Positions 1 to 3,360 are shown, counted from the first letter of the stretch. The stretch: DNA of 34,903 bases from Thermoplasmata archaeon (GCA_003649715.1 QMSS01000001.1:1-34903), one strand, 5' to 3'. Translations and numbers: made by a program. The notes: generated by a model from the letters alone, not told the origin.

Positions 1-3000
1 ATGGTTTGAGTAGTGGGTAGTTGTCTTGTGTGTTGTTTGGTATGTTGCGGGGTGTGTCTATTATGCTGTCGCTGCCTGGTATGTTTTGGTTTGGTCCGTG
101 GTAGTTGTCTGGTCCTGTGTGGTCGTCCCAGTAGTTTCCACCAGTGGGGTATCCGTTGTCCCATTGGTTGTCTTGACCATAATCATGTGCGTTTATTGTG
201 TTGTTTATGAAGTTGTTGTGGTATATAGTATTGTTTATGCTCTGTGGTCTAATTAGTATACCTAGACAGTTGTTTATGAGATTGTTGGAGGATATATGTG
301 AGTATGCTGTGGAGTCTAGTACAATTGCACCATTGCCTTCTGCTTGATATGCAACGATGTTATGTATAAGGTTGTTTTTGATGGTGGTATTGTGTGTTCC
401 TTCTGTTGTAAAAACTCCTATTGAAGTATTGTAGATTTCATTGTTGATGATGGATGTGTTTGTAGATGAGGCAACATGTATTCCTGGTATGTCTGCAGTT
501 GAGTCGACGCTGGATATGATGCAGTCTGTTATGGTGACATTAGAAGAATTTTCGACATATGTGGTGGCAGAATTGGTATTCTGTATTGTGAAGCCGCTGA
601 TATTGGCAGAAGCTACATCATGAAAGTATATGGTGGGTGAGTTAGGTGAGGTGGGTTTTAGAATAGTGGTGTTTTTGTTTATTCCGAGTAGGGAGATGTT
701 TTTTCTTATTACAATGTTTTCTTGGTAGAGTCCTGGTGGTGTTATGAGGGTGTGTCCATCTTGTGTATTGGGGTTTTCTATGGCGTCTGTGATGGTGTCG
801 AATAGTTGTTGTGTGTTGTTGTTGAGAACGCCGACGATGATGCTTTTGTTTTTCTCGTTGTCGTAGTAGTATTGTTCAGCAATATTTGGGATGGAGGCAT
901 TTATTTTTATTGTATGGGATCCTGTTTCTGTGGTCCAGAGGAATCCTGTTTTTATTGTGGAGTAGCTTTTGATGAGGGGTATTGTTGTGGAGTTTACTTC
1001 TATGTCGTCTATGTATAGTTTAATGATGATGTTTGTTTCATCATTTAGTCCGTCATTGATGATTATGGTGGTTATGTTGATTGTTTCATTGTTTTTTGTG
1101 TGGTTTAGAGTTTGTATTTCTGTGATTCCTATGTTGTGTTCTGGTATTCCTGGTGGTTTGAGGGTTTGAGCGGGGTCGCCGAATAGGTGAGAGGATTCTA
1201 TCGTATTCATGAGGTGGTTGTACGGGGAGATTAGTGCTGCTGTTTTGTCTCTTGCCCATTCCTGCGCCATACCAAGCTTCCAGAGAGGAAGTCTTCCACT
1301 GGTTACGTTGAACATATATTCCCAGAAATATCCTTGTAATATTGGGTCATCGATGTAGTTCCCTAGCCCGGTATTGTATATACATGCGAATGCTAGTTCA
1401 GTGTCACTGTGGAATAGCATTGAATGAAGCACACCATCATCTGCTCCATCCATATCACCACATTTACAACCCATGTCTAGTAATAGGAATGGTTTTGTGT
1501 TATGATAGTTCTCCTCCCAATCATAAACATCTAGAGATTTCCATGGATTTGCATGTGCGATTCCTGATATGATTGTGCAGTTGTCACTGTTGATGGCGTT
1601 GCGTAGACCTGTGATGGCTTCGTTTAGTGTGCCGCCTTGCCAGCCGTCGCCTGTTTCTCCAGCGGTCCATTTAACGGAGAGGTTGAAGGCTCGTTCTGGA
1701 TGGTTGTTGTTCCATTGTTCGAATTTTTCAACAGCGCATTGGTCTATGATGTCGTGGCTGAGGCTTTGGCCGGCGTAGAATCCAGTGTTTTCGAGGTAGT
1801 CAGAGTCTGTGTTGTCGGCATAGTAGAAGCTTTTTGTCAGCCAGTTTGAGATATCTGCTGGTTCGTCGCATGGTATGCTTCCGCTGTACATTTCTGAGAA
1901 GTAATCGAAGTCGTTGTCTTCGCCCCATTCGTTGTCGTGGTCGCCGTTGAATGTTCCATCAAGATGTGTCCAATAGATATCTGTCTCCAAGGATCCGCTA
2001 AATGATGACGTCATTTTTCTTCTTTCGATTTTGCTTTCTGGGTTGTAGTCATCGTTGTCCCCTGCGATTAGTATGTATTCTGTTTCCCAGTCTGTGTATG
2101 CATCGCGGCAGAATTCGCGTATTTTGGCGGGTGTGTCGTTGAAGAGTGGGTCGGGGTTCCAGTAGTCGGGGCATGCTAGTATGTCTTCTATTTTGATTTT
2201 GGTGGCGGTGAGTCCTTGTTGTTCTTTTTTGTTTATGAGGTCTTCCCAGGTGTGGTTTGTGTTTGTGAGGTTGTAGAGTGTTTCTCTGACTAGTATTATG
2301 TAGTTGTATCCTTTTCCGTTGTTGTCGTTGGGGTTGCATAGTCCTCCTGGGTAGGTTGATTTTTTTTGGTTTTGGTAGTATTTTGTCATTTCTGGGTTTT
2401 TTACTAGTGTTTCTACCCATTTTTTGTCGTTGGTTTTGTTTGGTCTTAGGTAGGGGTTGGTTTTGTTTGTTGTTTGGAGTTGTATGTTTATTTGTATTTT
2501 TTTGTGGTAGAGTAGTTGTGCTTTTTTTGGGTTGTAGTCGATTGGTAGTATGTGTAGTAGTAGTATGGTGTATCCGTGGCTGTATTGTATGCCTTGGTTT
2601 TCTATTGTTTTGTTTAGTATTGGTTTGTTGAGATTGTATGTTTGTTGGTTTATTGTTTGTGTTGGTGTTTGGTTGGTTGGTGTGGGTGGTGGTATGGGTT
2701 GTATTGGTTTTTCTTTTAGGTTTATTCCTTGTTGTGTTGTGTTGATTGTTATGGTTTGTGTTTTTGTGGTGATTTTGGTTGTTGTTGTTTTTGGTGGTAG
2801 TAGTATGGGGTATGGTATAGCTGGTAGGTTGGGTGTTCCGGGTTTTCCGGTGGGGTGGGATCCTGGTATTTTTATTGTGGTGTATGTTTTGTTTTTTTGT
2901 TTTGTTTCTTGTAGTTGTGGTTTTGGTGGGTGTATGGTGATTTGTATTTGTTGTGTTTTTGGGTTGTATGTTATGGTGTTTTTTGTTGTGTTTTTTTGTT

Positions 3001-3289
3001 GTGTGTTGTTGTGTGTTGTTTCTTTTTGTGTGGGTTTTTTTTCGAGGTAGGTTTTGGTTGGGTTTGTGGTATTTGTGTTTGTAGTTTTTGGTGGGTCAAG
3101 TTTTTTTTTGGGATAGGTTGTATCTGGGGTTTGTTGTGTTGTTGTGGTGGTTTTTTGTTTTTTTGTTTGTGTTGGTGGTGTGGCTGTTGTGGTTGTTGGT
3201 GTAGTTGTTAGGGTTGTGGTTATTAGGATTAGTGTTATGGTTAGTGTTATTATTGTTGTTTTTTTGTTTTTTGTTTTGTTTTGTTTCAT
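1..3289 (-). CDS. Large secreted peptidase C25 (gingipain-like, clan CD) family surface protein. Order: signal/anchor, Thr/Pro/Lys/Gln/Asn low-complexity region with C25-propeptide-like segment, C25 catalytic core, CARDB-like module, NosD-type right-handed beta-helix. The 5' end is complete; the 3' end runs off the left window edge (at least 1096 codons). Absent from the supplied ORF track.
   Basis: Hand check of + strand triplets 2-4, 5-7 ... 3287-3289 found no TTA/CTA/TCA (reverse-strand stops) anywhere. ATG lies at 3289-3287, and an in-frame upstream stop lies at 3439-3437 with no earlier start codon. N-terminus is MKQNKTKNKKTTIITLTITLILITTTL. Motifs YILIAGDNDD, IYWTHLDGTFNGDHDNEWGE, CTIISGIAHANPW and PFLLLDMGCKCGDMD align with YVLIGGDEDV, IYYACLDGTYNYDGDDKWGE, YIINHLGHSWY and CFIYSQGCMAGGFD of ORF 21527..23806. 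The window-proximal end reads GNYWDDHTGPDNYHGPNQNIPGSDSIIDTPRNIPNNTQDNYPLL, typical of the end of a NosD/beta-helix domain. Confidence 0.8.
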   Translation of the reverse strand, partial: MKQNKTKNKKTTIITLTITLILITTTLTTTPTTTTATPPTQTKKQKTTTTTQQTPDTTYPKKKLDPPKTTNTNTTNPTKTYLEKKPTQKETTHNNTQQKNTTKNTITYNPKTQQIQITIHPPKPQLQETKQKNKTYTTIKIPGSHPTGKPGTPNLPAIPYPILLPPKTTTTKITTKTQTITINTTQQGINLKEKPIQPIPPPTPTNQTPTQTINQQTYNLNKPILNKTIENQGIQYSHGYTILLLHILPIDYNPKKAQLLYHKKIQINIQLQTTNKTNPYLRPNKTNDKKWVETLVKNPEMTKYYQNQKKSTYPGGLCNPNDNNGKGYNYIILVRETLYNLTNTNHTWEDLINKKEQQGLTATKIKIEDILACPDYWNPDPLFNDTPAKIREFCRDAYTDWETEYILIAGDNDDYNPESKIERRKMTSSFSGSLETDIYWTHLDGTFNGDHDNEWGEDNDFDYFSEMYSGSIPCDEPADISNWLTKSFYYADNTDSDYLENTGFYAGQSLSHDIIDQCAVEKFEQWNNNHPERAFNLSVKWTAGETGDGWQGGTLNEAITGLRNAINSDNCTIISGIAHANPWKSLDVYDWEENYHNTKPFLLLDMGCKCGDMDGADDGVLHSMLFHSDTELAFACIYNTGLGNYIDDPILQGYFWEYMFNVTSGRLPLWKLGMAQEWARDKTAALISPYNHLMNTIESSHLFGDPAQTLKPPGIPEHNIGITEIQTLNHTKNNETINITTIIINDGLNDETNIIIKLYIDDIEVNSTTIPLIKSYSTIKTGFLWTTETGSHTIKINASIPNIAEQYYYDNEKNKSIIVGVLNNNTQQLFDTITDAIENPNTQDGHTLITPPGLYQENIVIRKNISLLGINKNTTILKPTSPNSPTIYFHDVASANISGFTIQNTNSATTYVENSSNVTITDCIISSVDSTADIPGIHVASSTNTSIINNEIYNTSIGVFTTEGTHNTTIKNNLIHNIVAYQAEGNGAIVLDSTAYSHISSNNLINNCLGILIRPQSINNTIYHNNFINNTINAHDYGQDNQWDNGYPTGGNYWDDHTGPDNYHGPNQNIPGSDSIIDTPRNIPNNTQDNYPLLKP

Positions 3290-3360
3290 GTTGTTTGTTT
3301 TTCCCTCTTCTTCCTTCTTTTTTTTGTTTTGTTTTGTTTTTTTGGTTTTTAAGTGTTGTT
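2440..3360. repeat. Low-complexity keto-only tract (G/T on the + strand, A/C on the coding strand). It covers the 5' third of the C25 gene and its leader.
   Basis: Hand counts: 2641-2700 has 58 of 60 bases G or T (2 A, 0 C); 2941-3000 has 57 of 60 (3 A, 0 C). (T4-8 G)n runs flank the start codon at 3259-3286 and 3318-3350. Confidence 0.85.

Follow-up and report, generated by a model that had tools for sequence, protein, structure and literature searches.

A near-A/C-only coding tract in a predicted gingipain-family protease gene of a Thermoplasmata archaeon, with a probable origin in local one-strand base bias

The strand asymmetry of animal mitochondrial DNA arises through deamination of the displaced H strand, and transcription-associated asymmetry is known from E. 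coli, where C>T changes fall on the non-transcribed strand, and from mammals, whose coding strands carry an excess of G+T. In animal mitochondria, strand asymmetry has been found to alter protein composition (PMC2779903), and replication-strand-specific usage of codons and amino acids has been described for Borrelia burgdorferi, Chlamydia and Lawsonia (PMC2671203, PMC2089121, PMC2099444). Extracellular C25 peptidases, the family of the gingipains, have been reported from MBG-D/Thermoprofundales archaea (PMC6461988, PMC9585477, PMC6752024).

The window examined here is a stretch of 34,903 nucleotides from a sediment Thermoplasmata archaeon of the MBG-D/Thermoprofundales type, and its genome shares several features with these systems. 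As in animal mitochondrial DNA, free sites are rich in G+T on one strand and in A+C on its complement, genes of the A/C strand have approximately 80-95% A/C at third positions with the opposite-strand gene as a mirror image, and amino-acid usage tracks nucleotide bias. The dissimilarities are that polarity here flips every few kilobases within one chromosome and that the organism is a free-living archaeon, for whose lineage we know of no asymmetric replication mode. As in Borrelia, Chlamydia and Lawsonia, DNA strand rather than expression sets whether codons end in G/T or A/C, with usage of Val/Ile, Lys and Thr affected.

The tract and its protease gene

The + strand of positions 2440-3360 was found to be 88.4% G+T (T 521, G 293, A 73, C 34) with a purine content of only 39.7%, in agreement with the sequence-only reading of this strand as nearly pure G/T and of the skew as keto/amino rather than purine/pyrimidine; its counts of non-G/T bases, two of 60 in 2641-2700 and three of 60 in 2941-3000, were exact. 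Among 300-nt windows across the 1.5-Mb genome (G+T mean 0.498, sd 0.082), the tract holds the maximum of 0.93, making it the strongest keto/amino stretch, and it tops the only five tracts of at least 0.80 G+T. A chance origin was excluded by this peak. Of the limits originally assigned to the tract, the edge at approximately 3360 is sharp, G+T falling by 0.41 in one of the five sharpest switches of the genome, while that at 2440 is not an end but part of a gradual fade, with G+T at 79% in 2201-2400 and 68% in 2001-2200.

The tract comprises a 70-nt leader and codons 1-285 of a minus-strand ORF (2..3289, 1096 aa), the 3' end of which is cut by the contig end. A candidate TATA-like element, TTTTTTATTTT (3376..3386, minus strand), read from the sequence, is situated approximately 15-25 nt upstream of the start of the A/C tract. 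The mRNA 5' leader (3290..3360, minus strand), assigned from base composition and sequence reading, is A/C-rich (86% G+T on the + strand) and holds a purine block, GAAGGAAGAAGAGGG (3303-3317), with the ATG 14 nt downstream of it. Among codons 1-285, 199 (70%) were found to be purely A/C and a further 75 to contain one G/T, mostly T at position 2 (Ile/Leu), with K/N/T/Q/H/P accounting for 71% of residues. The earlier description of a nearly pure A/C coding strand over about 280 codons dominated by these six residues was thereby borne out, and the two peptides quoted in it were both located (aa 28 and aa 198). Translation starting downstream of the tract, a possibility raised at that time, was contradicted by the position of the next Met (residue 301) and by the alignment of homologues to the signal helix and pro-domain.

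The gene product is predicted to be the precursor of a secreted gingipain-family (C25) cysteine peptidase and an ordinary member of that family. Codons 1-25 (3215..3289, minus strand) encode a predicted signal peptide or membrane anchor, identified by its AlphaFold2 helix and by homologue alignment, in which a Lys/Asn-rich N-terminus is followed by a hydrophobic helix (aa 11-25) of Ile, Leu and Thr only; in six homologues the N-termini aligned with this helix are likewise hydrophobic, but V/C/A/F/G are used there. Codons 26-100 (2990..3214, minus strand) form a low-complexity spacer considered disordered from its composition and pLDDT of 31-40, within which AlphaFold2 predicted no secondary structure. 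Its 75 residues include T 30 (40%), K 12, P 9, Q 7 and N 6, tandem repeats in it are weak, and a counterpart is missing in the six aligned homologues and in P0003. Codons 101-285 (2435..2989, minus strand) encode a folded beta domain assigned as a gingipain-type N-terminal pro-domain using Pfam (Propeptide_C25, PF08126, aa 114-277, E 1.4e-5, 24.7 bits, cut-off 22), AlphaFold2 (confidently folded, pLDDT 87-97) and Foldseek, with which the model was found to resemble the pro-domains of Kgp (5mun, TM 0.78) and RgpB (4ief). A family profile of the domain matched 5mun_A with an E value of 5.5e-16.

The C25-like catalytic domain (codons 286-715; 1145..2434, minus strand) was identified with Foldseek through RgpB 1cvr (E 1.9e-12, TM 0.62 normalised to target length) and Kgp 6i9a (E 6.8e-12). 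No match to PF01364 at E<=0.01 was obtained with Pfam in the target itself; homologues 45-52% identical to it carry both PF08126 and PF01364. Among 46 sequences, H579 is invariant and C608 at least 90% conserved, and these residues are the candidate catalytic dyad, putatively equivalent to RgpB His211/Cys244. Downstream lie a CARDB domain (aa 723-800; 890..1123, minus strand; PF07705, E 9.4e-7) and NosD/right-handed beta-helix repeats (aa 862-1059; 113..706, minus strand; PF05048, E 6.9e-18; PF13229, E 6e-12), beyond which the ORF runs on past the contig end, where any C-terminal sorting signal would lie. A search of 5.8 billion proteins returned 383 homologues, none nearer than about 50% identity (best 48-52%), and those inspected have ordinary N-termini.

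The gingipain pro-domain maintains enzyme latency and is subsequently removed. As with the gingipain precursors RgpB and Kgp (MEROPS C25), the target possesses a signal sequence, a pro-domain, a caspase-like catalytic domain and display modules. It differs in that it has a 75-residue Thr/Lys/Pro spacer between signal helix and pro-domain, that its pro-domain is composed mostly of approximately nine amino acids, and that it ends in CARDB and NosD beta-helix modules. At aa 608-610, the site of the C-H-C motif, it carries Lys in place of the His of relatives.

Every stop codon requires both T and A, and therefore none is possible on a pure A/C or pure G/T strand. Long shadow ORFs, which the sequence-only reading had ascribed to such stop-free composition, were found on both strands by ORF scan and six-frame stop counts, at 2550..3050 on the + strand (166 aa, V/G/F/C/L/W-rich, on the G/T strand and not a gene), 3144-3446 on the + strand, and 2049-2420 and 3096-3569 on the minus strand. 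Its expectation of a weakly structured mRNA held as well, the three 300-nt parts of the first 900 nt folding at -2.4, -6.7 and -6.1 kcal/mol, whereas coding windows of the genome lie at -61 +/- 15. The 34 N-X-S/T sequons that it had counted by hand in the whole protein proved to be the exact number.

Silent sites, residue replacements and patches across the genome

Within codons 1-285, A/C occupies 276 of 285 third positions (97%), whereas the codon usage of the genome, applied to these amino acids, would give 183 (64%; z=12). Each degenerate amino acid is shifted, as with Gln (CAA 100% vs 50%), His (CAC 100% vs 25%) and Tyr (TAC 91% vs 38%). The remainder of the gene has 80% A/C at third positions against 55% expected (z=15), and the catalytic domain, of near-normal amino-acid composition, nevertheless has 58-96% per 100 codons. 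In the pro-domain, A/C was found at 83-89% of first, 72-77% of second and 98-99% of third codon positions.

Residue content has also been altered. Over 169 aligned columns of the pro-domain, K/N/T/Q/H/P make up 64% of residues against 30-37% in six homologues, and those whose codons must begin with G or T make up 12% against 40-47%. Read against the consensus of homologues from outside the genus, which leaves the direction of substitution unpolarised, consensus Val was kept at 0 of 9 positions and Ser at 0 of 16, with Glu mostly appearing as Lys. The corresponding K/N/T/Q/H/P shift in the catalytic domain is small (31% vs 22-28% in homologues). The 5' regions of three C25 paralogues form a dose series in which third-position A/C of 0.59, 0.83 and 0.97 is accompanied by K/N/T/Q/H/P fractions of 0.33, 0.42 and 0.71. 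Third-position A/C is uneven along the gene, dipping to 0.58 in codons 601-700; this is not predicted by a purely regional mutation pressure, and part of the pattern may therefore stem from gene conversion between paralogues or from a mosaic history.

Across the genome, third-position A/C of genes ranges from 0.09 to 0.93 (mean 0.55, sd 0.13) in an ORF-based gene set that includes some shadow ORFs. Real genes are present at both ends, with DnaK at 0.93 and those for an SNF symporter, TYW1, UbiA, ThiI, a serpin, ALDH, diphthine synthase and OTC at 0.09-0.24. This measure correlates with proteome composition (rho +0.58 for K/N/T/Q/H/P, -0.54 for G/V/W/C/F), and the keto skew of 469 intergenic spacers tracks that of the flanking genes (r=0.77), the slope against silent sites being only 0.5. 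The skew occurs in patches of approximately 1-3 kb and of both polarities, with several sign changes inside the 35-kb contig. A genome-wide skew scan had been proposed as the test of whether such tracts are confined to surface-protein genes. That notion largely gave way, weaker A/C tracts being found also in the cytoplasmic housekeeping genes for DnaK, PGK, Rad50 and CoaBC, along with mirror-image G/T tracts and skewed spacers, and signal/anchor proteins as a class were not enriched (third-position A/C 0.529 vs 0.575 for cytoplasmic proteins). The bias was not seen in DnaK of five relatives, where coding-strand A+C is 0.54-0.58 against 0.71 here among orthologues 79-85% identical, and in the relative G008 the sd of third-position A/C over twenty genes is 0.055.

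The skew follows the DNA strand rather than gene orientation, as third-position A/C of convergent pairs is anticorrelated (-0.49 to -0.55) and one contig (C45) is A/C-rich on its + strand throughout, with genes in both orientations. The anticorrelation of divergent neighbours is only -0.10 once the ORF set is strictly filtered. The skews of Borrelia, Chlamydia and Lawsonia are modest and coherent over half-chromosomes, whereas here the autocorrelation of keto skew declines from 0.81 at 0.5 kb to 0.25 at 2 kb and is lost (0.05) by 3 kb, across the wide range of values given above. An asymmetry on the scale of replication was rejected on this evidence, polarity not being coherent at replichore distances. 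Transcription-associated asymmetry offers closer parallels, in patches of approximately gene or operon size, in a sharp boundary at the putative promoter region of the gene beside the candidate TATA-like element, and in the positive correlation of tandem neighbours (approximately +0.55) alongside the negative one of convergent genes. The polarity described for it is, however, the opposite. Coding strands here are A+C-rich on average, and the G+T excess was not found on them, mean third-position A/C being 0.55 and the strongest cases 0.93-0.97. Furthermore, no more than 16% of the variance is accounted for by gene orientation (R2 0.16), and some real genes have the opposite polarity over their entire length.

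Alternative explanations

Glycosylated Thr/Pro-rich linkers are known from archaeal surface proteins, and selection on the protein for a mucin-like stalk of this kind would leave the A/C content as a passive result of the need for Thr, Pro, Lys, Gln and Asn. The spacer is in keeping with this, being disordered, Thr-dominated and beside a membrane or signal helix, as is the excess of sequons over composition-preserving shuffles (34 vs 21.1 +/- 3.9). The spacer is, however, only a quarter of the tract and is not conserved in homologues, whose composition is normal, and its codon choice is biased as strongly as that of the adjoining folded domain. Of the "stalk or propeptide" once suggested, the propeptide stands, as the conserved, folded gingipain pro-domain homologue makes up two thirds of the tract, and a mucin-like linker is restricted to the spacer at most. 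Silent sites at 97% A/C are beyond the reach of amino-acid demand, the untranslated leader is skewed too, and neither the tracts in cytoplasmic genes, the mirror-image tracts nor the lack of enrichment among signal/anchor proteins fits a stalk, so that this explanation is considered improbable. We regard as slightly weaker still the proposal of RNA-level selection, in which an abundant exoenzyme would gain in translation initiation, ribosome loading or co-translational secretion from a structure-free A/C 5' kilobase. In E. coli, translation is raised by CA-rich downstream sequences; here the first 900 nt fold very weakly, and the distance of the tract from the TATA-like element places its start near a plausible transcription start. 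Against this, the bias spans more than 1.2 kb and reappears at codons 700-1096, spacers and the antisense strand of real genes carry the same bias, and it is absent from other secreted proteins and from the C25 paralogue within the window (third-position A/C 0.56-0.59).

Translational selection for A/C-ending codons, optimal for G34/U34 tRNAs in a very highly expressed gene, would accord with the high third-position A/C of EF-1alpha (0.71), EF-2 (0.77), the thermosome (0.76) and DnaK, and with a tRNA set of the usual G34/U34/C34 mix. It appears highly unlikely given that the C30 ribosomal-protein operon reaches only 0.42-0.62, while Rad50, CoaBC and a PAS sensor are among the high-A/C genes; nor can selection for optimal codons drive real genes to 0.09-0.24 or account for skewed spacers and the anticorrelation of convergent neighbours. 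The least credible of the alternatives is that the tract is foreign or artefactual, through recent horizontal import or an error of assembly or sequencing. The absence of a close homologue, the atypical composition for the contig and the nature of the assembly (a MAG in 205 contigs, with some contig pairs approximately 70% identical) would allow it. The 1096-codon frame is intact, though, homology to members of the same archaeal family is continuous through the tract, and the changes fall mainly at silent and conservative sites, a pattern that arises only through evolution under purifying selection. The 35-kb contig also holds housekeeping genes, and similar patches are present on many contigs.

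Proposed origin and meaning

The question originally posed, whether protein composition or a nucleotide-level process drives the tract, leans towards the nucleotide level on the evidence of silent sites, homologue comparison and spacers. We consider it probable (approximately 0.7) that the A/C tract reflects a strong local base bias on one strand, and not a need of the protein for a mucin-like stalk. The excess of sequons and the spacer rich in Thr and Pro allow for an additional contribution at the protein level.

A local, DNA-strand-specific pressure would enrich A+C on the coding strand of the gene and G+T on its template strand, working in patches of approximately 1-3 kb of either polarity that include non-coding DNA. 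Its maximum would fall on the spacer and the transiently needed pro-domain, the regions of the protein under least constraint, where such base pressure would have caused residues requiring G/T (V, E, D, A, G, S, F) to give way to A/C-encoded I/T, K/Q, N and T/P, while the catalytic core would have withstood replacement. We infer that a strand-asymmetric bias in mutation or repair, and not selection, underlies the pressure, which would act at roughly the scale of the transcription unit. Patchy strand recoding of this kind looks to be undescribed in print. The odds seem evenly balanced that the tract is the extreme product of an undescribed archaeal process, one that drives kilobase patches of coding and non-coding DNA towards A+C and G+T strands in either polarity, matches neither replichore-scale asymmetry nor the known transcription polarity, and has rewritten a folded pro-domain in a reduced alphabet of mainly nine residue types with its fold retained.

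On this reading, the two-letter tract shows where the DNA is pushed and not what the protein requires. It is a natural experiment in which a conserved, still-foldable domain at 64% K/N/T/Q/H/P displays the reach of nucleotide bias under relaxed constraint. Strand asymmetries such as these distort the inference of expression or horizontal transfer from codon usage and bias the amino-acid composition of phylogenomic markers, and the stop-free shadow ORFs that they create mislead gene callers. If mutational, these local asymmetries would indicate a strand-specific process of damage, repair or synthesis in archaea.

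Composition of the tract and the protease that it encodes

On the forward strand, positions 2440-3360 were found to contain T 521, G 293, A 73 and C 34 (88.4% G+T), and the two 60-nt examples picked out by the sequence-only reading hold exactly the 2 and 3 non-G/T bases that it had counted. Purines make up just 39.7% of the tract, in keeping with its description as a keto/amino rather than a purine/pyrimidine skew. Across the whole 1.5-Mb assembly (205 contigs, of which the window is C1), 300-nt windows have a mean G+T fraction of 0.498 (sd 0.082); the tract peaks at 0.93 and is the strongest of only five tracts in the genome with G+T of at least 0.80. 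The skew ends abruptly at approximately 3360 and fades slowly toward lower coordinates (0.79 at 2201-2400, 0.68 at 2001-2200). Its sharp end lies approximately 15-25 nt downstream of a candidate TATA-like element. An origin by tandem-repeat expansion was rejected, as the matches from Tandem Repeats Finder were weak and overlapping, of low complexity, and scored no higher than 101. The mRNA was predicted to be as weakly structured as had been supposed, with the first 900 nt giving -2.4, -6.7 and -6.1 kcal/mol per 300 nt versus -61 ± 15 for coding windows of the genome, and the long shadow ORFs do follow from the composition, since each stop codon requires both T and A.

The coding strand is the minus strand, carrying an ORF of 1096 codons (2..3289) whose 3' end lies beyond the contig end. 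Pfam domains identified on its product were Propeptide_C25 (aa 114-277), CARDB (aa 723-800) and NosD (aa 862-1059), with Beta_helix (aa 887-1034) inside the NosD region. Searches of 41 related genomes and 5.8 billion proteins returned hundreds of homologues, the best merely 44-52% identical, with no relative above approximately 50% identity found among the 5.8 billion proteins. Most bear Propeptide_C25 together with Peptidase_C25, their sources including Thermoplasmatales SM1-50 and Thermoplasmata M9B2D, and the homology sets in near query residue 100. For MBG-D/Thermoprofundales, extracellular peptidases of the gingipain type have been reported previously (PMC6461988, PMC9585477, PMC6752024). 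The protease adds a new but ordinary member to the C25 family. At aa 608-610 (window 1450-1465), the family's near-invariant Cys-His-Cys motif GCHCG reads GCKCG; His at position 609 is replaced by Lys, both being A/C-encodable, with H579 and C608 retained.

In an AlphaFold2 model from 46 aligned sequences (mean pLDDT 80, pTM 0.81), residues 11-25 form a helix, residues 26-100 are unstructured (pLDDT 31-40), residues 101-285 fold into a beta-rich domain (pLDDT 87-97), and a confidently modelled catalytic domain follows. With Foldseek, the catalytic part matched the gingipain RgpB (1cvr, E 1.9e-12) and also Kgp, while the N-terminal domain matched the pro-domains of Kgp (5mun, TM 0.78, 23% identity) and RgpB (4ief); 5mun_A was also matched by sequence using the family profile (E 5.5e-16). 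The "280 codons" flagged from the sequence thus cover three parts: a predicted signal/anchor helix, a disordered spacer of 75 residues and a folded pro-domain of the gingipain type. Among the 75 spacer residues are 30 Thr, 12 Lys, 9 Pro, 7 Gln and 6 Asn, and no counterpart to this spacer was found in six aligned homologues or in P0003, a homologue with the same domain set. Translation starting downstream of the tract is unlikely, given that no further Met occurs before residue 301 and that the signal helix and the pro-domain both align with homologues. The hand count of about 34 N-glycosylation sequons in the whole protein proved to be exactly 34, versus 21.1 ± 3.9 in shuffles, with 9 inside the tract versus 5.6 ± 2.0 in shuffles.

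Nucleotide-level pressure and protein demand

The sequence-only reading had left open whether protein composition or a nucleotide-level process drives the tract; three tests, namely silent sites, the non-coding leader and directional replacement, favour the nucleotide level. Of the first 285 codons, 276 end in A or C, versus 183 predicted for these amino acids from the codon usage of the genome (z=12). The shift to A/C endings holds for each degenerate amino acid, as for Thr (97% vs 74% expected), Pro (100% vs 64%), Gln (100% vs 50%), His (100% vs 25%) and Tyr (91% vs 38%). The other 811 codons of the gene have 80% A/C third positions versus 55% expected (z=15), and the third-position A/C fraction of the coding strand (AC3) per 100 codons runs.93,.99,.98,.96,.78,.76,.58,.90,.83,.73 and.84. 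Outside the coding sequence, the skew is 86% in the 70 nt of leader that precede the ATG.

Directional replacement was examined over 169 aligned pro-domain columns against the six homologues. Residues of all-A/C codons (K/N/T/Q/H/P) account for 64% of the target versus 30-37% of the homologues, and residues requiring G or T at codon position 1 for 12% versus 40-47%. None of nine consensus Val (replaced by T, I, P or A) and none of 16 consensus Ser were retained, while consensus Glu mostly became Lys. The signal helix is restricted to I/L/T where homologues have V/C/A/F/G, and the K/N/T/Q/H/P shift in the catalytic domain is small (31% vs 22-28%). The 5' regions of three C25 paralogues in the genome form a dose series, with AC3 of 0.59, 0.83 and 0.97 accompanied by K/N/T/Q/H/P fractions of 0.33, 0.42 and 0.71. 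A patchy, strand-specific bias at the nucleotide level accounts for the composition of the tract.

Other genes for secreted C25 and NosD-like proteins were identified at window 21530-23806 (-), C81:6594-7427 (+) and C79:4518-5591 (+), the last two on other contigs of the same MAG. The in-window C25 paralogue (21530-23806) is ordinary in composition. Thr, Lys and Asn are again abundant in the C25 fragment on C81 and in the beta-helix protein on C79, whose genes have AC3 of 0.83-0.87.

Strand-skewed patches across the genome and in relatives

With genes approximated by ORFs, a set that includes some shadow ORFs, AC3 was found to average 0.55 (sd 0.13, range 0.09-0.93). High-AC3 genes include those of DnaK (0.93), PGK, Rad50, CoaBC and a PAS sensor; low-AC3 genes that are real by Pfam include an SNF symporter (0.09), TYW1, UbiA, ThiI, a serpin, an aldehyde dehydrogenase, diphthine synthase and OTC. 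Genome-wide, AC3 correlates with protein composition (rho +0.58 for K/N/T/Q/H/P, -0.54 for G/V/W/C/F); among single residues the correlation is most negative for Val, and most positive for Lys, Ile, Gln and Thr. Between neighbouring genes, AC3 correlations were +0.59 for tandem, -0.49 for convergent and -0.37 for divergent pairs over all ORFs, and +0.54, -0.55 and -0.10, respectively, once ORFs facing an open frame on the opposite strand had been removed. Across 469 intergenic spacers, keto skew tracks the strand skew at third positions of the genes on either side (r=0.77), whatever the junction type. Keto-skew autocorrelation falls from 0.81 at 0.5 kb to 0.25 at 2 kb and 0.05 at 3 kb, and since it is gone by 3 kb the patches are gene- to operon-sized, not replichore-sized.

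The forward strand of contig C45 is A/C-rich for more than 7 kb, spanning plus-strand genes (0.78-0.79), minus-strand genes (0.09-0.30) and a convergent spacer (19-33% G+T). The stretch C45:7700-9350 is a mirror image of the tract: a minus-strand SNF-family symporter (Pfam E 8.8e-119) with 9% A/C third positions and a coding strand of 75-80% G+T, adjoining plus-strand genes with 78-79% A/C third positions. The forward strand of the window leans toward G/T for approximately 13 kb in either gene orientation, because four plus-strand genes (24008-29681) have AC3 of just 0.35-0.48 and the flanking minus-strand genes (21530-23806 and 29761-34795) 0.56-0.83. Over 153 genes with 500 codons or more, AC3 averages 0.50 in the opening 25 codons and climbs to 0.61 close to the stop; the gradient of the protease gene is opposite to this rise.

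Relatives were compared using composition profiles and one 20-kb sample. The DnaK coding strand is 0.71 A+C here versus 0.54-0.58 in the orthologues of five relatives (79-85% identical), and twenty genes in the 20-kb sample, from relative G008, have AC3 of 0.48 ± 0.055. The bias may occur in a milder form in relatives, since four of them have a keto sd of 0.041-0.071 over 500-nt windows, versus 0.079 here. Milder amino/keto patches may also exist in related genera, judging from a 1.5-kb stretch of relative G001 (C3:69000-70500; locus L026, 9001-10500) with AT skew of +0.39 to +0.53, slightly negative GC skew and approximately 32% G+T.

Candidate causes of the bias

A property of secreted proteins was rejected, with AC3 of 0.529 in a crude signal/anchor class (87 ORFs) versus 0.575 in cytoplasmic ORFs. 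Translational selection was set aside because the ribosomal-protein operon has AC3 near 0.5 and spacers are skewed as well, and the loss of autocorrelation by 3 kb discounts a replication-scale skew. The repair-gene content was not informative on a loss of deamination repair, with Endonuclease V present (C82:6218-6775). No UDG (PF03167) match was found in this MAG, weak evidence at 92.65% completeness, and of 24 relatives 16 have a match above the family cut-off and eight have none. GGCC was not enriched at sharp skew switches, of which the genome has only 20; A/T runs alone were enriched. Operon position showed no clear trend with the bias. Intragenomic duplicates were not usable for polarising substitutions, being just 66-76% identical paralogue pairs. 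Approximately twenty contig pairs (C6/C55, C34/C194, C38/C66, C23/C152 and others) have 0.6-2.6 kb in common at 66-76% nucleotide identity, and C66/C164 have 1.2 kb at 86%; such pairs may be paralogues or a little DNA of a second related population in the bin.

The size of the patches, the robust anticorrelation of convergent pairs and the sharp end of the tract near the TATA-like element suggest that the bias is linked to transcription units. Four observations weigh against a simple link to transcription. Coding strands are A+C-rich, opposite in polarity to the transcription-associated asymmetries that have been described, and gene orientation accounts for only 16% of the variance. Genes of reversed polarity are reversed evenly from end to end, with no weakening seen with distance from the convergent neighbour (0.297, 0.301 and 0.308 over gene thirds). 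Finally, AC3 of the protease gene dips to 0.58 at codons 601-700, which hints at a mosaic history among paralogues.

The proposed driver would be a mutation or repair bias that is strand-asymmetric and patchy, its footprint resembling that of mitochondrial H/L-strand asymmetry; that the bias is mutational and not selective is given a probability of about 0.6. The literature searched yielded replication-type MK/keto skew and strand-specific codon usage and no description of kilobase keto/amino patches in archaea, so that a nucleotide-level, strand-specific, patchy bias of this kind appears to be undescribed. Taking the genome-wide AC3, spacer, composition and autocorrelation results together, the tract stands at the far end of a patchy, strand-specific bias at the DNA level, and it falls on the least constrained part of the protein.
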